The position numbers and the translations under genes were made by a program. 24,000 bases of DNA, taken from positions 11,768 to 35,767 of the forward strand of contig CACIXQ010000005.1 in the NCBI GenBank assembly GCA_902590655.1, written 5' to 3'. Below are positions 8,433-23,197 of this stretch, in pieces (within the stretch, counting starts at the first letter, position 1; every line of letters starts with the position of its first letter). Below the pieces are notes generated by a model. The model was not told the DNA's origin. It did not search any database and was given only the letters and a program-made list of their open reading frames with translations. Source of the stretch: an uncultured marine group I thaumarchaeote. Its GTDB lineage: Archaea; Thermoproteota; Nitrososphaeria; Nitrososphaerales; Nitrosopumilaceae.

Positions 8433-8882
8433 TTATTCGAGTTGCGCTACTAGAGATTTGTATTTCCAGTTTTGAGGAATACGACCAATTTTTTTGTAGT
8501 ATACTGATAATCGGTGAACTTTGGCTTCGATTAATTCAAGTGAACGTACGTTTCTTTTATCGCTCTTGTTTGCCTTGAGATGTTTTTGTAATCCAATTGC
8601 CTTCTTTACTATATTATCTAGGTCTTCAGGTAGATCGGCTTTTAGATCATTTTCTTCTAAAACTTTGGAAATTGTCTTTTTTATGACAGGTTTTACGAGT
8701 GGAATTGAATGTTGATCCCTTAATTTCACACCAATTTGACTAGCTGAGAGATTGTCTTTTCCGTACTTTACGATCAGTTCCTCAACCTCTTTTGCATCTT
8801 CCTTTATCCATGATGGTGCCTTTGGATCTATAGGTCTTGTAGAGTGTGATTTACCATAATTATGCGAATGTAGTCTACCCAC
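8433..8882 (-). CDS. rps15: 30S ribosomal protein uS15 (S15P/S13e)
   Basis: 149 aa with a GTG start. It has GRLHSHNYGKSHSTRP at the N-terminus and a C-terminal S15 fold (RSLELIEAKVHRLSVYYKK). Confidence 0.92.
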   Translation of the reverse strand: MGRLHSHNYGKSHSTRPIDPKAPSWIKEDAKEVEELIVKYGKDNLSASQIGVKLRDQHSIPLVKPVIKKTISKVLEENDLKADLPEDLDNIVKKAIGLQKHLKANKSDKRNVRSLELIEAKVHRLSVYYKKIGRIPQNWKYKSLVAQLE

Positions 8883-8999
8883 GAAGCAAAATTCTTCAAA
8901 AGTAACATAAACGTTTTCCTGAAGCTGATCTAGGGTTCCTAACGATGAAATTTAGAAAAAAGTTAAATAATAACGGGTAGGAGATTTTATCAGGTTAAA

Positions 9000-9311
9000 A
9001 TGAAAAGATCAATCTATGCTTTGAGTACATTGGCATTATGTATGGCAATGTCCACACTTGTAATTCCAGTAATGGCATACAGTGGTTTAGGTGCAGTAGA
9101 TGGAATCACACTTGAAGAACACCTAGAATTGGCAACCAGAAAGGTTGACAAGGCTGAAGCAAACCCAGCAACAGGCTCAGGAACTCCTTATCTTGATGCA
9201 CAAGGTGTCTTAGGTTCATCTATTATTGCTGGAGCAATATTTGGTGGAATCGCTACTGCTATGTTTGTCAGAGGAAGATCTGGCAGATACGCTGCATACG
9301 GACGCGGTTAA
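9000..9311 (+). CDS. small secreted/membrane-anchored protein (signal peptide plus C-terminal TM helix and basic tail)
   Basis: 103 aa. It has an N-terminal hydrophobic signal-like segment (ALSTLALCMAMSTLVIPVMA), a C-terminal hydrophobic helix (SIIAGAIFGGIATAMFV) and the tail RGRSGRYAAYGRG. Confidence 0.55.
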   Translation: MKRSIYALSTLALCMAMSTLVIPVMAYSGLGAVDGITLEEHLELATRKVDKAEANPATGSGTPYLDAQGVLGSSIIAGAIFGGIATAMFVRGRSGRYAAYGRG

Positions 9312-9436
9312 ATTCACCTATTCCTATTTTATGAAATTTTTCTAATTCTATTAAGCTACTTTCTGATCCAATACTTTCTAGCGGTCCCTGATAATCACAG
9401 AAATGTATATATGCATTCCAATTAGTCAATTTATTG

Positions 9437-9706
9437 ATGATTCCTCTATTCGGTACACTACTTCATATTCTAACTAGTGTAACTGGACAAATAGGACCAA
9501 ACTATGACCCACTATTTTATGACGTCATGCTGTACATCTTTGGTACAATGATGTTCTCAATATTCCTACTTGGAGTTATTGGATATTGGATTAGAGTTCA
9601 CGGATGGTCATACAAGGACAACCGTGAGAGATGGGTTGATGAATTAGATAGACATTTCGAGAACGAAGGAATAGGTCTTATTCCAGACAACGGAAAGTAT
9701 TGGTAA
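9437..9706 (+). CDS. small integral membrane protein
   Basis: About 89 aa with two hydrophobic segments. I prefer ATG 9437, one codon after TTG 9434. A TATA-like GTATATAT at 9406-9413 lies about 24-31 nt upstream. Confidence 0.5.
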   Translation: MIPLFGTLLHILTSVTGQIGPNYDPLFYDVMLYIFGTMMFSIFLLGVIGYWIRVHGWSYKDNRERWVDELDRHFENEGIGLIPDNGKYW

Positions 9707-9964: not shown

Positions 9965-10513
9965 CTACAAGTCTGGTGGCAAAAAGTCAGCTTCTTGTGA
10001 CGCATCAAATTCTTCTGAATAAAATTCAGCCCTGTAAACTGACCCATCTTTCAGAAGTGTATGGATAAATCTATCAGATTCCTTTCCATCCATTATTATG
10101 CGGGATTTTGATTCGTCCATATCTTTCATTGGGAATTCCCAAATCCAAAGAAAATGACCAATTTCAAATGGGTATGCTTCTTCCCATTCTACGTAGATTT
10201 TTCCATCATCCGTAAGTGTATAGATAGTCCTTTGACAGTCAGAAGCCAATAAGTCATCACCAAGACTATCACCAAATCCTATGTTGGCAGGTATGTCTGC
10301 CCTGTTTCCATCCACATACAATTCTAGAGTCACTGACATTTTGTATGGTGTATCCCTGTTCTCAATACAGACTTTTAGTGGATCACTTTGGCCAAGAAAT
10401 CCTTGGATGGTACTACTGGTCACACCAACTGTGACCCCAATGATGAGTAAAATTATGAGAAACCTTATTGTTTTTCTCCTTCTGTTTGGGTCCCCCATTC
10501 CTGGCCAGCGCAT
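9965..10513 (-). CDS. membrane-anchored protein with an extracytoplasmic domain, function unknown
   Basis: 182 aa. A basic N-terminus is followed by a TM helix (IRFLIILLIIGVTVGV) and a roughly 140-aa soluble domain with two Cys. It is on the same strand as amoAB and downstream of it. Confidence 0.6.
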   Translation of the reverse strand: MRWPGMGDPNRRRKTIRFLIILLIIGVTVGVTSSTIQGFLGQSDPLKVCIENRDTPYKMSVTLELYVDGNRADIPANIGFGDSLGDDLLASDCQRTIYTLTDDGKIYVEWEEAYPFEIGHFLWIWEFPMKDMDESKSRIIMDGKESDRFIHTLLKDGSVYRAEFYSEEFDASQEADFLPPDL

Positions 10514-10547
10514 AAATCAAAAACACCTAATTTGCATAAAGTCGTTT

Positions 10548-10859
10548 CTATAATACCGATATCTCAAGCGTATCAAACTGGTCTTGATGGTCAGCAATGT
10601 AAAATGTGATTGGACTAGAATCGATTTCTACCCATTCTGATTCTCCTCTATATTCAACAAAGTCCTCAACTGATACGCCAGGACCTGAGCATTTGACTAG
10701 AACTCTCTTTTGTGTATTTATGGGAAAAGGAAGACGTAGCACTTTTCCCCTCCTTTCATCTTGTATATTTATCGTAAATTCATCGTTTTGAAATCGTACT
10801 TTTCCCTTGAAATAACTTTCATGAATGTCAAGATATTCTATTTGAAAAATATACCCCAT
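10548..10859 (-). CDS. hypothetical soluble protein immediately downstream of amoB
   Basis: 103-aa ORF with an ATG start. Its own TATA-like box (TTTATAAT on the minus strand, 10888-10895) lies about 29 nt upstream. Confidence 0.55.
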   Translation of the reverse strand: MGYIFQIEYLDIHESYFKGKVRFQNDEFTINIQDERRGKVLRLPFPINTQKRVLVKCSGPGVSVEDFVEYRGESEWVEIDSSPITFYIADHQDQFDTLEISVL

Positions 10860-10898
10860 GATATGCTAACGAAATGGTACGTTAAAAATTATAAAATG

Positions 10899-10905
10899 AA
10901 AAAAA
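10899..10905 (-). terminator. oligo-T (T7) tract downstream of amoB
   Basis: The A7 run on the plus strand is T7 on the coding strand, and it begins 12 nt after the amoB stop. Archaeal RNA polymerase terminates at oligo-T tracts. Confidence 0.45.
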
Positions 10906-10916
10906 GGATTTGTTGG

Positions 10917-11483
10917 TTAGATTACTTGCCAAGGTCTTGTTGCAAATGTTACTACATATGCAGCTGCAATCATAACGCTCTGATATGCAAGCATTCCCCA
11001 TGCGATTGGCTTCAATATTGGTTCTCCCTCTACAACAACTGTTGTTCCTGGTCCTAGACCTGGTCCTACGTTTGCAACGTTAAGTTGTGTGTGAACGTGG
11101 TAAACGCCTGGTTCTAGTGCTTTAGCAGTAATTGCATAATTTGTTACAGAGTTACCAGGTATCTGAAATACAACACCTGGTGGGTCTCTAGCCATAATCT
11201 CCCATCTGTTACCAGAGTTGGTTGATTCTGAAAATAGAGAAATCCATCCTCTTTGTTCCCTCTCAACCAGACTTACTAGAGTTCCAGAAAGAACTAGAGT
11301 TTCACCTGTAGATAGTGATTGTCGAGAAATCGCTTCATTTGTAATTTGAATAAAACGACTTTGCAGCTGTGCTTGAACACCGTGTGCCTCAGCTGATTGG
11401 ACAATTTCAGCAACATTTGGACCATACATACCAAGTACGAAAACAGCCCCTACAGTAATTGCTAGAAATTTTTTATCTATCAT
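10917..11483 (-). CDS. amoB: ammonia monooxygenase subunit B (archaeal)
   Basis: It has a signal-like N-terminus, then AHGVQAQLQSRFIQ, which is characteristic of archaeal AmoB, and a C-terminal TM helix. I prefer ATG 11483 (MIDKKFLAI...), 5 nt after the amoA stop. The ORF track's upstream ATG at 11519 would overlap amoA. Confidence 0.92.
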   Translation of the reverse strand: MIDKKFLAITVGAVFVLGMYGPNVAEIVQSAEAHGVQAQLQSRFIQITNEAISRQSLSTGETLVLSGTLVSLVEREQRGWISLFSESTNSGNRWEIMARDPPGVVFQIPGNSVTNYAITAKALEPGVYHVHTQLNVANVGPGLGPGTTVVVEGEPILKPIAWGMLAYQSVMIAAAYVVTFATRPWQVI

Positions 11484-11488
11484 GATTA

Positions 11489-12139
11489 TCAGTCCCACTT
11501 TGACCATGCGGCCATCCATCTATACGTCCACGTATTGAGCTTACAACCCAATGCTGCAAATGTACATGCTAGTACCGATCCAGCTCCCGCTCCAAGAGCT
11601 ACTGGGCTGTTATAGAACTTACCTACCTGCGGTTCTATCGGCGTCATGTATGGTGGTAATGTTGGTCTTGGATACTTGAATGCAGTTTCTAGTGGATCTG
11701 CTATCAACATCAACTGTACCATGTTGAACAGTGGCATTGACATTCCGACTAAAACTCCGCCAAAGAATATCAGCGAGTGTTTATTCTTCTTTGTCGCCCA
11801 ATATGCCAAGTCCAATAACATACACGATGGAATCCACATTGGATGAACAATGAAGTCTGCAGGGTAACCAAGTGCAAACCATGCAACTTTTGCAACCCAA
11901 GTATAGACTTGCATAATTAAACCATAATACGATGCAGTACCGGGTACACCAGTAAATGTAAGATAGTACACAGCACCAACAACTGTCATCAAAGTGTTAG
12001 CTATAGAAAATACTACAAATGAAGTCCAGGCCCAATCAGTATAGAAGATATAGTCACCAGAGTTAATTGTCAATAAAGTTGAGTTTACCGCAACTACGAC
12101 AATAAACAGATAATGAGTACATCGTCTAAGCCAGACCAT
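11489..12139 (-). CDS. amoA: ammonia monooxygenase subunit A (archaeal)
   Basis: 216 aa. MVWLRRCTHYLFIVVVAVNSTLLTIN...DYIFYTDWAWTS and FKYPRPTLPPYMTPIEPQVGKFYNSPVALG...KLNTWTYRWMAAWSKWD match the archaeal AmoA sequences I know nearly throughout. Confidence 0.97.
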   Translation of the reverse strand: MVWLRRCTHYLFIVVVAVNSTLLTINSGDYIFYTDWAWTSFVVFSIANTLMTVVGAVYYLTFTGVPGTASYYGLIMQVYTWVAKVAWFALGYPADFIVHPMWIPSCMLLDLAYWATKKNKHSLIFFGGVLVGMSMPLFNMVQLMLIADPLETAFKYPRPTLPPYMTPIEPQVGKFYNSPVALGAGAGSVLACTFAALGCKLNTWTYRWMAAWSKWD

Positions 12140-12817: not shown

Positions 12818-13685
12818 ATGACGTCTGGCACAACAACTTCAAAAATATGTACAGGAACCACGACCATTTGTAAAATGGGCTGGAGGAAAAAGACAACTTC
12901 TAGATGAATTACAGAGGAATTTCCCAAAAAAATTTGATACTTATTTTGAACCATTTCTTGGTGGTGGCGCTGTTATGTTTAATCTACTAGGAAAACATCC
13001 AGATATGAAATGCCATGTATCTGACCTAAATTCTGATTTAATTTTAGCATATTTGGCAATAAGAGACAAAGTAACTGAAGTTATTGATTCGCTTGAAGAA
13101 CATGCCAAAAAATATCAGAAAAACCCAGATTCCTACTATTATCATGTTAGAGAGTCTGAACCAGTATCGCAGATTGAGAAGGTATCAAAACTAATCTTTC
13201 TAAACAAGACTTGTTTTAACGGACTATACCGCGTAAACAGTAAAGGTAAATTCAATGTTCCATTGGGAAGATACACAAACCCAAATATTGTCAATAAATC
13301 AAATCTTCTAGCAGTAAGCCAGATCTTACAGTCATCAAATTTGGAATTTTTCTGTAGAGATTTTGAGAGCGTTTTGCATGATATTAAAAAAGGCGATTTT
13401 ATCTATTTTGATCCTCCATACCAACCTGTCAGCAAAACAGCCAGTTTTACAAGCTATACAAACAAGATGTTCACGGATGACGATCTTGACAGATTAGCAA
13501 ATCTTGCTGAAAAACTTGATTCTATGGGATGCAAGGTTTTGCTTTCAAATTCAAAATCAAAAAAAGTGGAAAAATTGTTTTCTGCATCAAAATGGACCAT
13601 TAAGGAAATTCGAGTAAATAGGGCAATAAACTCCAATTCCAAAAAGCGAACAGGTCACTCTGAGATTCTAGTTAAGAACTATTAA
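12818..13685 (+). CDS. Dam-family (D12 class) N6-adenine DNA methyltransferase, apparently frameshifted near the 5' end
   Basis: The reading frame is open from 12822. It encodes PFVKWAGGKRQLL, FEPFLGGGAV (SAM motif I) and FDPPY (motif IV). The first in-frame ATG/GTG/TTG is only at 12975, after motif I. The ATG at 12818 is in another frame and would join after loss of one A from the A5 run at 12841-12845. Confidence 0.8.
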
Positions 13686-18485: not shown

Positions 18486-19949
18486 ATGAGTAACGATTAT
18501 GATGTTATTGTAGCTGGTGGTGGACTTACTGGAACTATCGTAGCTCAAGCAATTTCACATTATTCTAATCAAAATTTATCAATCCTTTCAATAGATAGAA
18601 ATCCAGAAACACTTCCAGGAAGAAAATCAAATCCAGGATGGACATGTGGTGACGCATGCTCAAAAGAAGCTGTTGATTTCATGACAGAGAGAATAAAGGT
18701 TCCTTGGACGTCTCCTGAAATTGAACATGACGTAAAAGGTGTCATGGCATTCTCACCTGATAAAGAAACTGCTATTCCATTTGATGGGGATGGCTACATG
18801 TTGAATCGTCAAAAACTACCAGAAGTTCAAAATGCAAGAACAAAGAAGATGGGAGTAAATTTTGACTTTGAAGTTAATCTTACAGGTTTACTATATGATG
18901 GACAACAAGCCATCGGCGTTCAGGGTATAAACAATAAAACAAATCAGCCATACAAAAAAACGGCAAAAGTTGTAATTGACGCCACTGGAGTTACATCAAT
19001 GCTTAGAAATCAACTAGAAAATTCTACTAAAATTGAGAGGAAGATAGACAGACGCGATTTGGAATCAACAGGCAGGCATATTATGTATTTTGAAAAGGGT
19101 GAAGAAGATCTAACTGAATTTGATCCGGATTATTGTATAATTCACTTAGACCAAGATATAGCACCAGGTGGATATGGATGGGTCTTCCCAAAGGCTGACA
19201 ACAAAGTAAACATTGGACTTGGTGTTGAAAAATCAATTTTGGATCAGAGAAATAAAAGACTTGGAAAAACTGACAACGTTGCATCATTGATGGAAGAATA
19301 TCTACAAAGAAATAAGGCAATCAAAAATGCAAAACTATCACAAGATCCATCAGATATTCACAATAACACTGGAGTATTCCAGGTTTCTGTAAGGAGACAA
19401 AATGATTGTTTAGTATCAGGTGGTTACATGCTAGTTGGAGACTCTGCATGGATGCCAAAACCAATTGATGCAGGTGGAATAGGTCCTGCCTTGATTGCTG
19501 GTACAATTCTAGGGAAAAATGTTGTAGATGCAATTGAAGCAAATGATGTCACAGAAAAGGGATTGTGGCAATACAATCTTGACTTTATTGAGGAATACGG
19601 TTACAAGACTGCTGGACTAGAACTTTTTAGACGTCTAGTACAAACATTAACCAACGAACAAATCAGTTATGGCATGAAACATTTTCTAGGAAATATTGAT
19701 GTTGAATCTATCAGTAAAGGCGAACATCCAGATTTCTCAGGTCTTACAAAACTTGGAATGATTATACGAGGAGCTATGAACAAGACAGTTGCTAACGGAC
19801 TAAAATACACATCAGAACAAAACAAGTGGTTGGTTGAACATTATAGAAATTATCCAAAAGATCCTGCTGGATTCGAAGAATGGAATAAATCTCTTCTTAA
19901 AACTCTTAATGAATCATTTGTAAAAATAGCCTCGTTTGCAAAGAATTAG
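18486..19949 (+). CDS. FAD-dependent geranylgeranyl reductase-family oxidoreductase
   Basis: 487 aa. It has an N-terminal dinucleotide-binding motif (DVIVAGGGLTGT), plus GGYGWVFPK and LVGDSA motifs typical of the GGR family. Confidence 0.82.
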   Translation: MSNDYDVIVAGGGLTGTIVAQAISHYSNQNLSILSIDRNPETLPGRKSNPGWTCGDACSKEAVDFMTERIKVPWTSPEIEHDVKGVMAFSPDKETAIPFDGDGYMLNRQKLPEVQNARTKKMGVNFDFEVNLTGLLYDGQQAIGVQGINNKTNQPYKKTAKVVIDATGVTSMLRNQLENSTKIERKIDRRDLESTGRHIMYFEKGEEDLTEFDPDYCIIHLDQDIAPGGYGWVFPKADNKVNIGLGVEKSILDQRNKRLGKTDNVASLMEEYLQRNKAIKNAKLSQDPSDIHNNTGVFQVSVRRQNDCLVSGGYMLVGDSAWMPKPIDAGGIGPALIAGTILGKNVVDAIEANDVTEKGLWQYNLDFIEEYGYKTAGLELFRRLVQTLTNEQISYGMKHFLGNIDVESISKGEHPDFSGLTKLGMIIRGAMNKTVANGLKYTSEQNKWLVEHYRNYPKDPAGFEEWNKSLLKTLNESFVKIASFAKN

Positions 19950-19983
19950 TCTTAAATAAAGTACCCAAGACAAGGATGTTACT

Positions 19984-20811
19984 TTGTCAGACCAAAGTGA
20001 ACAATCCATAGGAGGAAATGAACAACCATCTTATCTTGATTGGAACAATTCAATTGATGTTTTAGATAAAGCATTTGAGAATGGATTATTTGTTTTGATC
20101 ATTGGACCGAAGGGAACTGGTAAAACATCACTAGTAAGAGAATATGCAATACAAAAGTCAAGAGAATTAGAATCAATTAATTTTAGTCTTAGAACAAGGG
20201 AGAGTCATTTGATAGGAACCAAAAACTTAGTCGATGGTAATATTGGTTTTGATGAAGGAATTCTAGTCAAATCGATGAAGGAAGGAAATATCTTATACTT
20301 GGATGAAATTAATGCAGCAGAAGCTGACGTATTGTTAAGATTAGATGAAGCACTTGATGATCGTAGACAGATTATTCTCAAGGAATCTGACGGTAGAGTC
20401 ATCAAAGCAAAAGACTCGTGGTTTGTGATTGCAACAATCAATCCTCTCACACATGTTGGAACAAAGGAACTTCCTCCACAACTTCTAAGCAGATTTCCAG
20501 TTAGAATTAGATTAGATTATCCACCTGAAGATATTGAATACCAAATAATCAAAAAACACGTAAAAAATCCAAACGAATCTGAAGTTCTACAAGGAATTAA
20601 ACTAGCAAATACATTACGACAGGCATCAGCTGTTGAAGAGCTGTATTATTCTCCATCAATTAGAGAAACTATTGCATTTGCAAAGTTGTTAGAAAGCGGA
20701 GTTTCAGCAAAAGAATCAGCAAGGACCGTATTTGGAAACGTATACTCTCAATGGGGAAATGTAGAATTTCAAAAGGTAAATGACATTATTGCTTCTATGT
20801 TTGGTAGCTAA
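19984..20811 (+). CDS. MoxR-class AAA+ ATPase of the CbbQ/NirQ/NorQ type
   Basis: 275 aa with a TTG start. It has Walker A (IIGPKGTGKTS) and Walker B (ILYLDEINAAEADVL), then LDDRRQI...VIATINP...LLSRF. The size and layout match the single-ring AAA_5 CbbQ/NorQ proteins. Confidence 0.85.
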   Translation: MSDQSEQSIGGNEQPSYLDWNNSIDVLDKAFENGLFVLIIGPKGTGKTSLVREYAIQKSRELESINFSLRTRESHLIGTKNLVDGNIGFDEGILVKSMKEGNILYLDEINAAEADVLLRLDEALDDRRQIILKESDGRVIKAKDSWFVIATINPLTHVGTKELPPQLLSRFPVRIRLDYPPEDIEYQIIKKHVKNPNESEVLQGIKLANTLRQASAVEELYYSPSIRETIAFAKLLESGVSAKESARTVFGNVYSQWGNVEFQKVNDIIASMFGS

Positions 20812-22379
20812 TGCAATCCCTTGAATTACAAAATGATACTTTAATTGACATTGCGACTTTCCTTACAAGACGTTGGTCTGGAAAAGAAAATGTTACAGTC
20901 GAATTCTCAAAAATAAAACAAAGTGAAACAAGATTAAAGGAAAAAAGAATCCTATTGATGCCAAATGAAAATTATTATGGAGATGATTTTCAAAAATATA
21001 GACAGTTTAGAACTTCGATTTGGTATGAATCAATGCGATTAAAATATTGTGAAAAGATACTGAGCAATGATCATGCCTTTGGTTTTATTTTAAATGCGAT
21101 AGAGACACGTAGGATTGAACTTCTAGGAATTAAAACTTGGAAAGGAATGGTTGAGGAATTGATATTCAACTATACAAACATGTGGTTGTCTAGGTCTAAT
21201 CTAGGTTCAGTCTTTGGAAAAGCAAGGGTAGTGGAAGCATTCTATCAGTATTTCTTGTTTGATGATATCAAAGGTGAAATTCAGCCAAATCAGTTTAACA
21301 AAGTTTCAAAAGCTGTAGAGTTAGCCAAACACATTCTAAATGAGGCAATGGAACAAGAACACGACACAGCGTGGATTGAATCAAGAATACCAGAAATTTT
21401 AAAGATTTTAGATTTAGATGCCTTGATTTCTATCCCACTTTCAGTGCCTCTAAAGGGTCCTGGATTAGCCATAACACCTAATGATTTTGCTAAGGCAATG
21501 AAGCAAGTTACAAAATCACGAAAGGATGATTTTAGTAAGTTTGATTCAAAAAATGTTTTAGAAGGAAAAACTGTTCTTGATGAATTCAAAATAATAAAAA
21601 CTGAAAACAAGAAAAACGAGAAAAAAGGTTTGAGTACAAAATCAATTGGTATACAAATACCAGATCAGTCCAATGTAGATGAAACTATAATTTATGACCA
21701 GGATTTGATCAATAATTTGAAAGCCAAGTTTAAAGAATGGAAAACTGGATGGAAGGAATATCACTTTTTTGTAGGAGATGAGTTTGATAATGAAAGTTAT
21801 CTTGAGGGATATGATAGACCATTTGTAACGGACATAAAAAAATCAATTAATACGCGTATCGTAATTCTACTTGATCATTCATCTAGCATTGCTGATCAAC
21901 AAGTAGATTACAAAAAGGCCACACTAGCATTGTGTGAAGTCTTAGCTTTTTTGAAAATTAAATTTTCAGTATATGCATTCAATACTACTGAAAGGCAAGT
22001 GATGTGCTGGCTTGTCAAACCAGATAACTTGAAATGGAATAATTCGTGTGCAAAAAGACTTGCCCAAATTCCAGCCAACGGTGGAACACCTTTAGCCGAA
22101 GTTTATGATAAGCTGTACCCCATACTAAATTCTAAAAAACCAGACATCTTTCTCACACTTTCTGATGGAGAACCATCTGATGCATTTGCAGCTCGCTCTA
22201 TGGTAAAATCATTCAAATCTATTGGTATTAGGATGGTAGCAATTGGTGTTGGTCGGGATACACGTAATGCCACAATAATTGCAACCAATTTGAAATATCT
22301 GGGATTTGAGCGGACGTTGGGAGTTTCTAGACTTAGAGATATTCCTAATAAAGTGCTAAATGTACTAAGCGATAGATAA
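20811..22379 (+). CDS. von Willebrand factor A domain protein of the CbbO/NorD type
   Basis: 522 aa. The C-terminal VWA domain has a MIDAS DxSxS (ILLDHSSS), GGTPLAEV and LSDGEPSD. A long helical N-terminal region matches NorD/CbbO architecture. The ATG overlaps the stop of the ATPase gene (TAATG). Confidence 0.8.
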   Translation: MQSLELQNDTLIDIATFLTRRWSGKENVTVEFSKIKQSETRLKEKRILLMPNENYYGDDFQKYRQFRTSIWYESMRLKYCEKILSNDHAFGFILNAIETRRIELLGIKTWKGMVEELIFNYTNMWLSRSNLGSVFGKARVVEAFYQYFLFDDIKGEIQPNQFNKVSKAVELAKHILNEAMEQEHDTAWIESRIPEILKILDLDALISIPLSVPLKGPGLAITPNDFAKAMKQVTKSRKDDFSKFDSKNVLEGKTVLDEFKIIKTENKKNEKKGLSTKSIGIQIPDQSNVDETIIYDQDLINNLKAKFKEWKTGWKEYHFFVGDEFDNESYLEGYDRPFVTDIKKSINTRIVILLDHSSSIADQQVDYKKATLALCEVLAFLKIKFSVYAFNTTERQVMCWLVKPDNLKWNNSCAKRLAQIPANGGTPLAEVYDKLYPILNSKKPDIFLTLSDGEPSDAFAARSMVKSFKSIGIRMVAIGVGRDTRNATIIATNLKYLGFERTLGVSRLRDIPNKVLNVLSDR

Positions 22380-22380
22380 C

Positions 22381-23079
22381 TTGGAATTCATAAACATATC
22401 AGAACCAGAAATTAGAAAACCACTAGTCATAGCTGCGATGCAGGATATGGGAAATGTTGGTAGTATAGTTGTTAATTTTATCAACAAAAATCTTGGTACT
22501 GCACCATTCCGACATGTAAAATCTACTAGACCGCCATATGTTTACGACAGAGGTGGATTTATTGAGATACCAGAAGAAAAATGGGAATACAGATTTGGTA
22601 ATGACATTATAATATTTGGTGGAGGCTCAGGACAACCCCAACAAAATGATGAGTTGAATGAATTATGTCAAGATGTAATTGATATAGCAAAAAAATATGA
22701 TGCTAAATTCATCTATACAGTTGGTGGATTCCATACAAGCAGACAATTTGGAAAACATCCAACCACATATGTAACAACTACATCAAAAAATCTGTTAGAA
22801 CAAGTACAGAAACTTGGTATAGAAACAACACCACAAGAATCTGTTATTACAGGATTTAATGGTCTTATACTTGGATATGCAAAACTCAATGGAATTAATG
22901 GAATGGGGCTTTACGGAGAGCTTTTGGAACCAAATATTCCACAATATAGAGCAGCAAAAACCATTATTCAAACCCTAGAAAAATTAACATATCAAAAATT
23001 AGGTGATTTGAGTGAATTAGATGCCAAGGCTGATGCAGTTGACAATCAACTAAGTGGTGATATGAAAGATGAATACTAA
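22381..23079 (+). CDS. PAC2-family (proteasome assembly chaperone 2-like, COG1938) protein
   Basis: 232 aa. PLVIAAMQDMGNVGSIVVNFI, IIIFGGGSGQP, FIYTVGGF and the GFNGLILGYAKLNGINGMGLYGE pattern are typical of archaeal PAC2/PbaB-like proteins. The only possible start upstream of the conserved N-terminus is TTG 22381, 1 nt after the VWA stop. Confidence 0.7.
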   Translation: MEFINISEPEIRKPLVIAAMQDMGNVGSIVVNFINKNLGTAPFRHVKSTRPPYVYDRGGFIEIPEEKWEYRFGNDIIIFGGGSGQPQQNDELNELCQDVIDIAKKYDAKFIYTVGGFHTSRQFGKHPTTYVTTTSKNLLEQVQKLGIETTPQESVITGFNGLILGYAKLNGINGMGLYGELLEPNIPQYRAAKTIIQTLEKLTYQKLGDLSELDAKADAVDNQLSGDMKDEY

Positions 23080-23197
23080 AACAAAAAAGAAGACAATCTC
23101 CAAAAAGAAATCTAAATCAGCTAAAAGAAAGGAAAAAGAAATCAAAACTGAGATTTTTGAAGAAGAATATAGATACCAATGGAAAAATCGTCACTAG
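23069..23197 (+). CDS. 42-codon Lys-rich basic mini-ORF (speculative)
   Basis: ATG 23069 overlaps the PAC2 3' end by 11 nt. It encodes MNTKTKKKTISKKKSKSAKRKEKEIKTEIFEEEYRYQWKNRH, with stop TAG at 23195-23197. It exactly fills the gap to the convergent TRIC gene. It could be a chance ORF in A-rich sequence. Confidence 0.2.
   Translation: MNTKTKKKTISKKKSKSAKRKEKEIKTEIFEEEYRYQWKNRH

Follow-up and report, generated by a model that had tools for sequence, protein, structure and literature searches.

Within a 24,000-nucleotide (nt) stretch of DNA from an uncultured marine group I thaumarchaeote, hereafter the window, four closely packed open reading frames (ORFs) on the plus strand encode an AAA+ ATPase, a protein with a VWA domain, a PAC2-family protein and a lysine-rich mini-protein. 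A first-pass annotation of the sequence had presented the first three as a conserved and uncharacterized MoxR–VWA–PAC2 module with no obvious client. We conclude that this observation is correct and that the system is of an ordinary kind, and that the system-level claim is over-extended. In the account that we favor, and consider fairly probable, the conserved machine is a two-gene remodeler of the NorQ/NorD class, and the PAC2 gene and the small ORF are lineage-specific additions compacted onto its 3' end. The analysis thus sets PAC2 aside as a conserved component, and no classical client was found beside the pair in any lineage examined. MoxR–VWA pairs are common and few have a known client; ammonia-oxidizing archaea are globally abundant, and how their copper and nitrogen-oxide enzymes mature is a question on which the pair may bear. 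For pull-down experiments in cultured strains, the two proteins make a defined bait.

The ATPase–VWA pair recurs without PAC2

The window derives from an ammonia-oxidizing archaeon, as judged by AmoA at 11489–12139 (Archaeal_AmoA, E=6e-107) with an AmoB-like ORF beside it. The ATPase ORF (19984–20811, 275 amino acids (aa), TTG start), the VWA ORF (20811–22379, 522 aa, ATG start), the PAC2-family ORF (22381–23079, 232 aa, TTG start) and the mini-ORF (23069–23197, 42 aa, ATG start) all lie on the plus strand. The three larger genes run head to tail, with junctions exactly as first described: the ATPase stop TAA (20809–20811) and the VWA ATG (20811–20813) have one base in common within TAATG, and a single base separates the VWA stop (22377–22379) from the PAC2 TTG at 22381. 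The mini-ORF, which had been proposed as a possible fourth gene, overlaps the PAC2 3' end by 11 nt and is real, the same ORF being present in five other contigs (L014, L021, L023, L026 and L028). All four ORFs are genes and not chance reading frames; a word-index search returned 1860 homologues for the VWA protein and 1976 for the PAC2 protein, and a 50%-identity representative library holds 307 representatives of the former. Since 4 of the 13 same-strand junctions elsewhere in the window also overlap, tight packing counts for little here as evidence that genes have a common function.

The ATPase and VWA genes adjoin, overlap or lie at most 75 nt apart in every locus examined that holds upstream DNA; in L007 a small ORF lies between them. 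The pair is present in marine ammonia oxidizers, in L011 and L013, in the soil loci L008–L010, in Methanomethylicota (L004–L006) and in the virus-like contigs L007 and L094–L096, and the ATPases paired with distant VWA homologues are 60–67% identical to that of the window. The genes that flank it differ from lineage to lineage. In L011, which together with L012 comes from a metagenome-assembled genome (MAG) labeled 'Nitrosopumilus sp.' and encodes a VWA protein 41% identical to that of the window, the upstream order is that of the window (S3Ae, RNA_binding, GGR, ATPase, VWA), followed by PALP and ASCH genes and no PAC2. In L013, from an ammonia oxidizer with a 43% identical VWA protein, the next gene after the pair is convergent and encodes an MFS transporter. 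The soil loci place it next to transaldolase and transketolase genes, and in Methanomethylicota its neighbors are a thioredoxin gene on one side and a radical-SAM/ferredoxin gene on the other. A profile scan of genome contigs with six distant VWA relatives returned a single locus, from Methanomethylicota.

The distribution of PAC2 is different. A metagenome scan seeded with the window PAC2 defined a marine set of 80 loci (PAC2 75–99% identical), and in every one of them with upstream DNA the VWA gene precedes PAC2 (80/80 keep the adjacency). Those with longer upstream DNA usually retain the order RNA_binding, GGR, ATPase, VWA, PAC2. Two subclades can be told apart within this set. In the window's own subclade (VWA 74–98% identical), the VWA–PAC2 junction is 1 nt or an overlap and a small ORF follows PAC2, and in the second (VWA 58–72% identical) a gene for a 55-aa cysteine-rich protein, here called CWC, usually lies between VWA and PAC2. 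In L053, read directly, the CWC start overlaps the VWA stop, and PAC2 follows after a spacer with a TATA-like element.

Outside this marine clade PAC2 is lacking beside the pair in L004–L013 and L094–L096. Profile hidden Markov models (HMMs) that were derived from the marine loci for PAC2 and CWC and run over flanking DNA of up to 6–8 kb on each side of the pair, found nothing better than E=0.3 at eight distant loci. In the other direction, the PAC2 orthologue P0427 from a Nitrosopumilaceae MAG (L097), 69% identical to that of the window, lies between SlaA-like and Polyketide_cyc2 genes on a 2.8-kb contig that has neither a VWA nor a CWC gene; the matches listed in the PAC2 protein search were relatives of at least 69% identity, and among them L097 is the sole informative unlinked orthologue. 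Since the pair is found without PAC2 and PAC2 is found without a VWA gene, the three genes are not syntenic beyond the marine clade, and the triad put forward in the first-pass annotation stands as a feature of one clade of marine Nitrosopumilaceae (80/80) and of none of the other lineages examined.

Several points weigh against setting PAC2 aside in this way. The VWA and PAC2 genes remain adjacent in 80 marine loci across VWA identities from 98% down to 58% and at least three downstream arrangements, which might be more than is expected of a pure passenger, and the 1-nt or overlapping VWA–PAC2 junction is kept throughout the window's subclade. The sample of distant loci is also small, amounting to about ten contexts and one unlinked PAC2 orthologue.

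A further gene, for a geranylgeranyl-reductase family protein (GGR), lies directly upstream of the ATPase gene at 18486–19949, as it does in the marine loci and in L011 (4739–6193). It was considered as a client and rejected: it adjoins the pair in the marine loci and L011, with a weak GGR_cat match in L007, and is absent from L004, L008, L013 and L094–L096. For this reason its adjacency is better explained by shared ancestry. The L007 gene with the weak GGR_cat match (8652–9680) abuts the VWA gene, which is probably coincidence or inherited synteny.

Further observations were made at the distant loci. The upstream neighbor in L004 (6790–11187) and L005 (5727–10135) is a Thioredoxin_3 gene, and the downstream one encodes a 398-aa protein that joins 2Fe-2S, 4Fe-4S and radical-SAM domains; genes for a hemerythrin/PAS protein, a flavodiiron-like protein and a rubredoxin also lie near the Methanomethylicota pair, which makes this a redox and metal neighborhood. 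In L008 (3144–6138), and likewise in L009 and L010, a second and unrelated pair lies directly upstream, consisting of a 548-aa AAA_5-like protein and a 454-aa VWA_2/Rv0959_3rd protein. Given this second AAA_5–VWA pair in soil ammonia oxidizers, published mentions of 'NorQ/NorD' may conflate different pairs.

The ATPase belongs to the NorQ/CbbQ group

The ATPase is a MoxR-class AAA+ protein that we place, from its sequence matches, in the CbbQ/GvpN/NorQ (CGN) group. It matches AAA_5 over residues 37–171 (Pfam, E=1.6e-23), and its translation reads GPKGTGKT at Walker A and ILYLDEIN at Walker B. Among solved structures, NorQ is the best single-domain match (E=1.7e-21 and 4.3e-19), followed by CbbQ structures (E=6.7e-15 and 1.6e-11), and the top NCBIfam match is GvpN, far under its cutoff. 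The NorQ/CbbQ-type call made in the first-pass annotation is therefore upheld. The wider family check by profile HMM bore out AAA_5 and, for the third protein, PF09754, left the VWA match at the cutoff, and did not detect CbbQ_C (PF08406) in the window ATPase at E≤0.01 in the Pfam search; the Methanomethylicota orthologue reaches 18.3 bits against a CbbQ_C cutoff of 20.6. A match to midasin has the lowest E-value of all (3e-69), which is a score summed over several AAA domains, with a best single domain of 53–60 bits. It was rejected as a sign of a special relationship, since the score adds up hits to a series of repeated AAA domains, and domain by domain NorQ matches better. Against phage proteins the ATPase matches the CobS-like phrog_249 (E=3.6e-38). 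The PADLOC matches of the ATPase were weak and of a generic AAA+ kind (best E ~2e-5, 22 bits), and there were none for the VWA protein, PAC2, the mini-ORF, a CWC protein or P0284, so that a known anti-phage defense system is unlikely.

The VWA protein resembles NorD and carries a disabled-looking N-domain

The Pfam VWA match is marginal (23.7 bits, cutoff 23.8), and the VWA protein has no sequence-level match in PDB, NorD included. The fold is more informative. A Foldseek search with residues ~270–522 returned the VWA domain of NorD in cryo-EM complexes of NorQD from 2026 as the best match (9qhd_G, E=2.5e-10) and the MIDAS domain of human MDN1 as the second best (8ql1_G, E=4e-6). Moreover, the residues of the metal-ion-dependent adhesion site (MIDAS), D355, S357, S359, T426 and D452, do not vary in two family alignments, of 21 and 41 members, in agreement with the original description of a NorD-like VWA protein with a MIDAS site. 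The hairpin and VWA domain occupy 21681–22379 (plus strand) with the MIDAS intact (D355-x-S357-x-S359, D355 at 21873–21875). The AlphaFold2 (AF2) model of the full protein has a predicted local distance difference test (pLDDT) score of 84 and lays out as a helical N-domain with a small sheet (residues 1–210), a charged linker of low confidence, a conserved hairpin and the VWA domain. From its place in the model, the conserved hairpin before the VWA domain is a putative pore 'finger'. The linker (approximately residues 211–290; 21441–21680, plus strand; AF2 pLDDT 40–70) is rich in Lys and Glu, varies in length across the family and would be the positional counterpart of the linker in NorD, which NorQ has been proposed to stretch (PMC13036017).

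The N-domain (residues 1–210; 20811–21440, plus strand) is modeled with high confidence (pLDDT 90.4, predicted template modeling score (pTM) 0.86), and no Pfam family matches it in any of 21 family members. All of its top 11 Foldseek matches in PDB are minigluzincins (selecase, jannalysin, abylysin), with weak E-values that run from 0.04–0.09 for the best five and rise to ~1, and with a best target-normalized template modeling (TM) score of ~0.57–0.60. Relatives outside the ammonia oxidizers read WHEAMH and, ~25 residues on, IEDYRIE, which is the gluzincin-type HExxH...E signature. At the same columns the ammonia-oxidizer clade reads WYE[AS]MR...ETRRIE, and the window WYESMR...ETRRIE; the HExxH zinc motif has degenerated to YESMR, and the full signature of HExxH with a downstream Glu ligand is absent from the window N-domain. 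The modeled fold thus looks like that of a gluzincin whose zinc ligands have been lost. Such a disabled gluzincin-like handle on the adaptor, with active-looking relatives in virus-like elements, would be a modestly new detail.

These active-looking relatives raise the question of where the pair came from. In L007 and L094–L096, contigs of 30–54 kb, the VWA protein has an intact HExxH...E and a MoxR ATPase gene lies directly or closely upstream. The same contigs encode PolB, ERCC4, primase, RFC-like, PDDEXK, STIV_B116-like and integrase proteins, have many small unannotated ORFs in long stretches, and look like genomes of archaeal viruses or mobile elements. MoxR–VWA pairs are known in archaeal viruses, for example p618/p892 from Acidianus two-tailed virus (ATV; PMC4124505). 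One hypothesis is that the pair is a domesticated module of viral or mobile-element origin, in which an ancestral active metallopeptidase–VWA protein and its ATPase, as in ATV p618/p892, were turned to a new cellular use after the peptidase was inactivated. Besides the intact motifs and gene content of these contigs and the phrog_249 match of the ATPase, a structure search of viral proteins with the full-length VWA model argues for it, returning many CobT-like/VWFA proteins of phages and haloarchaeal viruses (E=5e-14 to 1e-11) together with ATV ORF892 (E=2.4e-6). However, a scan of IMG/VR viral contigs seeded with the HExxH group brought up no relative, tblastn of P0284 and of the window VWA protein against INPHARED gave no match, and the PADLOC results offer no support. 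Moreover, the pair is chromosomal, conserved and syntenic across ammonia oxidizers, and the hypothesis concerns origin more than present function. We consider it very unlikely.

The PAC2 protein and its C-terminus

The family call for the third protein was sound: it matches PF09754 over residues 17–224 at E=5e-27 (95.5 bits, cutoff 25.8). It falls far under the cutoffs of both TIGR00162 (80.1 bits, cutoff 200) and TIGR00161 (47 bits, cutoff 199), and among solved structures it matches PbaB (3vr0, E=2e-9) and PbaA (3wz2, E=1.4e-6), which by sequence places it nearer PbaB than PbaA. Its acidic C-terminus ends in ...DAKADAVDNQLSGDMKDEY, that is ...KDEY, and the C-terminal HbYX motif (hydrophobic residue, penultimate Tyr, any residue) is absent, the end being -D-E-Y, as had been recognized. 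The C-termini of its orthologues are of at least eight kinds (e.g., -DDYDF, -NDEYS, -EGYGR, -RRDGI, -EDDIPKR and -KYSNDI); those of one subclade have a Tyr at one to three residues from the terminus, and those of the other usually lack a terminal Tyr. For PbaB, both binding to the 20S proteasome and activation of it depend on the C-terminal HbYX (GYL; PMC3605417). Given the lack of HbYX and the variety of C-termini, a canonical gate-opening role for PAC2 is unlikely. Across the two subclades PAC2 is 75–81% identical, as against 58–72% for the VWA protein, and this higher conservation would fit a gene under its own selective constraint. The proteasomal ATPase PAN is reported absent from Thaumarchaeota (PMC3493965), which keeps a proteasome-related role of PAC2 interesting without tying PAC2 to the ATPase.

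Promoter-like elements also bear on whether PAC2 is expressed as part of the cluster. The block AATTAGTCTTAAATAAAGTA (19944–19963, plus strand), upstream of the ATPase gene, is near-invariant in ~35 related loci and contains a TATA-like TTAAATAAA at 19952–19960, 24–32 nt upstream of the ATPase TTG. It is kept even at loci with a different upstream gene (L002/L003, L052, L056 and L057), and the TTG start itself is conserved in 35 related loci, as is GATGTTACT-TTG downstream of the block. From its position and conservation we infer that AATTAGTCTTAAATAAAGTA is an archaeal promoter, and the ATPase mRNA looks leaderless or very short-leadered, beginning with TTG, and driven by a strong archaeal promoter. 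The second marine subclade has a conserved TATA-like element 18–31 nt upstream of the PAC2 ATG, similar in geometry to the block before the ATPase gene, so that PAC2 probably has its own promoter there. In the window, TAATAAAG at 22346–22353, inside the 3' coding end of VWA and 28–35 nt before the PAC2 TTG, resembles the TATA-like core of the operon promoter block and might serve PAC2 as an internal promoter.

The CWC protein and a traveling tail peptide

The CWC protein (55 aa; CSECG..F.C....TCWC...PK......I.D.DC.C..C) is found at L053 (5772–5939) and ~70 other loci within L015–L093. Its gene occurs in ~70 of the 80 marine clusters, either between VWA and PAC2 or after PAC2, and is a more regular small member of the cluster than the mini-ORF; it has been lost from the window. 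The match to Pfam Cys_rich_CWC is weak (21 bits, cutoff 24), and the protein may bind metal.

The mini-ORF, a Lys-rich stub without CWC in the window and in the five other contigs, ends in a conserved tail, EIKTEIFEEEYRYQWKNRH (23138–23197). This tail, the last ~20 residues (..EIKTELFEEE.RY.W.N.H), recurs in ~40 loci. In ~25 of these, which include most loci of the window's subclade, it is fused to the CWC domain, as a 75–100-aa CWC–tail protein encoded after PAC2. The second subclade has it as the native C-terminus of a 149-aa protein with an ASCH domain, encoded about 3–6 kb downstream of PAC2 (L053, 10556–11005), where the ASCH family call is taken from the precomputed annotation of the L011 orthologue; the L011 ASCH protein (10009–10452) has a recognizable form of the tail, ..EIIDEESRYRLVGWH. 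The tail is conserved as amino-acid sequence in all three settings, namely ASCH protein, CWC fusion and stub. Judged from this conservation it is probably functional, yet not native to the cluster, and it looks like a short docking motif that has survived gene fusions. In the simplest history, the intervening genes were deleted, the 3' end of the ASCH gene fused to the CWC gene, and the CWC domain was then lost. The traveling tail peptide is a modestly new detail. PF0014, the small partner of PbaA, was considered as a counterpart of the mini-ORF and rejected, since nothing in PMC6992696 links them; it is left as an analogy.

Do PAC2 and the small proteins nevertheless work with the pair? An alternative hypothesis is that marine Nitrosopumilaceae have a real four-part system in which the pair acts on or with a PAC2 oligomer and a small CWC or tail peptide. 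The pair might then serve to load a PbaB-like ring onto the 20S proteasome, to release it or to remodel it, with the acidic PAC2 tail or the EEE tail peptide as the MIDAS ligand. The best argument for such a link is that the VWA–PAC2 adjacency is unbroken in the 80 marine loci despite rearrangements nearby. Tight junctions (VWA–PAC2 in the window's subclade, VWA–CWC in the other), the regular presence of CWC, and apparent protein-level constraint on the tail peptide in three architectures are also consistent with it, as are the reported absence of PAN and the fact that PbaA works with a small partner protein (PMC6992696). However, PAC2 is missing beside the pair in every lineage outside the clade and is unlinked in L097; the housekeeping gene GGR is equally syntenic, so the adjacency may reflect only shared ancestry; and PAC2 has a promoter-like element of its own in one subclade. 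Furthermore, PAC2 C-termini are unconserved and lack the HbYX on which PbaB depends for 20S binding, the window has lost the CWC domain, and the tail is native to an ASCH protein unrelated to the cluster. On balance we think a four-part system unlikely; if PAC2 were a real partner, it would represent a new kind of proteasome-linked machine in organisms without PAN.

A bolder version holds that the pair has been recruited to a PbaB-like PAC2 ring and to the Cys-rich or tail peptides as a new ATP-driven regulator of the proteasome or of quality control in marine ammonia oxidizers without PAN. The AAA+ ring, VWA/MIDAS adaptor and PAC2 scaffold would then loosely echo the eukaryotic Rpt/Rpn10/PAC proteins, and the operon fusion in the window would be the most derived form. 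We regard this version as highly improbable.

Comparison with known systems and the question of a client

We return to the two-gene remodeler as the favored account and ask which known system it resembles. The closest is NorQ/NorD, the chaperone that inserts FeB into cNOR (structures 9qh4–9qhg, PMC13036017). The window pair shares with it an ATPase of ~270 aa that has NorQ as its best match, a VWA gene directly after the ATPase gene, an intact MIDAS, NorD as the best fold match, and, as modeled, a layout of N-domain, long linker, putative finger and VWA domain. In contrast to NorQ/NorD, its VWA protein is shorter, shows no sequence-level similarity to NorD in PDB and is accompanied by an ATPase in which CbbQ_C is undetected, and there is no norB/norC in the window or at the annotated loci. 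The CbbQ/CbbO Rubisco activase belongs to the same MoxR CGN group and likewise has a VWA/MIDAS adaptor encoded downstream, whereas no Rubisco gene is found here or at the other annotated loci. Ammonia-oxidizing archaea fix carbon by a route other than Rubisco, and CbbO, at ~770 aa, is much larger than the VWA protein of the window.

The viral CobS/CobT-like and p618/p892 pairs (ATV and haloarchaeal tailed viruses) are alike in the phrog_249 match, the CobT-like/VWFA fold and the HExxH relatives in virus-like contigs; they are unlike it in that the window copy is chromosomal, sits in a housekeeping neighborhood and has a degenerate peptidase motif, and in that the INPHARED and IMG/VR sequence searches were empty. 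PbaB/PbaA resemble the window PAC2 in that PF09754 spans the whole protein and in a flexible acidic C-terminal segment, and differ in that the window PAC2 lacks the penultimate-Tyr HbYX, has a variable C-terminus and stays under the TIGR00162/TIGR00161 cutoffs; we found no report of either adjoining a MoxR–VWA pair. Midasin (Rea1/MDN1) shares the top summed AAA match, the second-best MIDAS fold match and a VWA finger that docks in the AAA ring (PMC13036017). Unlike the window pair, midasin is a single eukaryotic polypeptide of 5000 aa with six fused AAA domains that acts in ribosome biogenesis, and the relation is one of clade, not of orthology.

What, then, is the client of the pair? The client is not encoded in the cluster. 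Neither norB/norC nor Rubisco genes (cbbLS) were found in the 24-kb window or among the Pfam-annotated neighbors at other loci; the first-pass annotation was right that NorB and Rubisco are missing from the window, and the classical client that it allowed might emerge as a conserved neighbor elsewhere was not seen at the other annotated loci. Its view that the triad is uncharacterized stood in part. NorQ and NorD homologues without NorB have already been reported in marine and soil ammonia-oxidizing archaea (PMC4084955, PMC6790972), and one of these two genome papers reports expression of a NorD homologue; no literature was found that links PAC2 with MoxR or VWA proteins.

One suggestion for a client is an enzyme of nitrogen metabolism that uses copper or iron (ammonia monooxygenase, NirK or a multicopper oxidase, for example), into which the pair would insert metal, as NorQD inserts FeB into NorB, with PAC2 irrelevant. 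The nearest characterized relatives, NorQD, CobST and CoxD, insert metals or remodel metalloenzymes (PMC13036017), the amo cluster lies 8 kb upstream in the window, homologues of norQ/norD in Nitrososphaera evergladensis are reported near a nirK-like multicopper oxidase gene (PMC4084955), and the Methanomethylicota orthologues are flanked by thioredoxin and Fe-S radical-SAM genes. However, no metalloenzyme gene is conserved as a neighbor across the loci examined. L011 has no amo genes between the same flanking markers, and in the virus-like contigs no such enzyme accompanies the pair. In addition, some ammonia oxidizers have more than one AAA_5–VWA pair, so that the pair meant by 'NorQ/NorD near nirK' is ambiguous. 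A metal-insertion role of this kind appears distinctly unlikely, although it and descent from a virus overlap with the two-gene remodeler and do not exclude it.

Proposed mechanism

NorD is described as reaching into the NorQ pore with its finger, and its linker is proposed to be twisted and stretched when ATP is hydrolyzed (PMC13036017). By homology to NorQD, we hypothesize that the two-gene remodeler of the window would work in a similar manner. Transcription of the pair would start from the conserved promoter-like element that immediately precedes the ATPase gene. The ATPase would form a hexamer, the pre-VWA hairpin would insert into its pore, and the MIDAS site would hold an acidic side chain of the client protein, with the gluzincin-like N-domain perhaps giving a second hold on either the client or the ATPase. 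Hydrolysis of ATP could then twist and stretch the charged linker and so open up the client, perhaps to let metal be inserted. Local rearrangement and compaction of the genome may have pressed PAC2 and the tail ORF onto the 3' end of the operon in one marine Nitrosopumilaceae clade; in the window they are probably co-transcribed with the pair, and they would not be obligate parts of it.

Other features of the window

The window has a guanine-plus-cytosine content of 37%. The ammonia monooxygenase cluster is located at 9965–12139 on the minus strand, 8 kb upstream of the ATPase gene, and includes the AmoB-like ORF (10917–11519), with two small unannotated ORFs adjoining. An EVE-domain gene and a gene for a D12-class N6-adenine DNA methyltransferase (1637–2053 and 12975–13685) lie amid aminoacyl-tRNA synthetase and ribosomal-protein genes.

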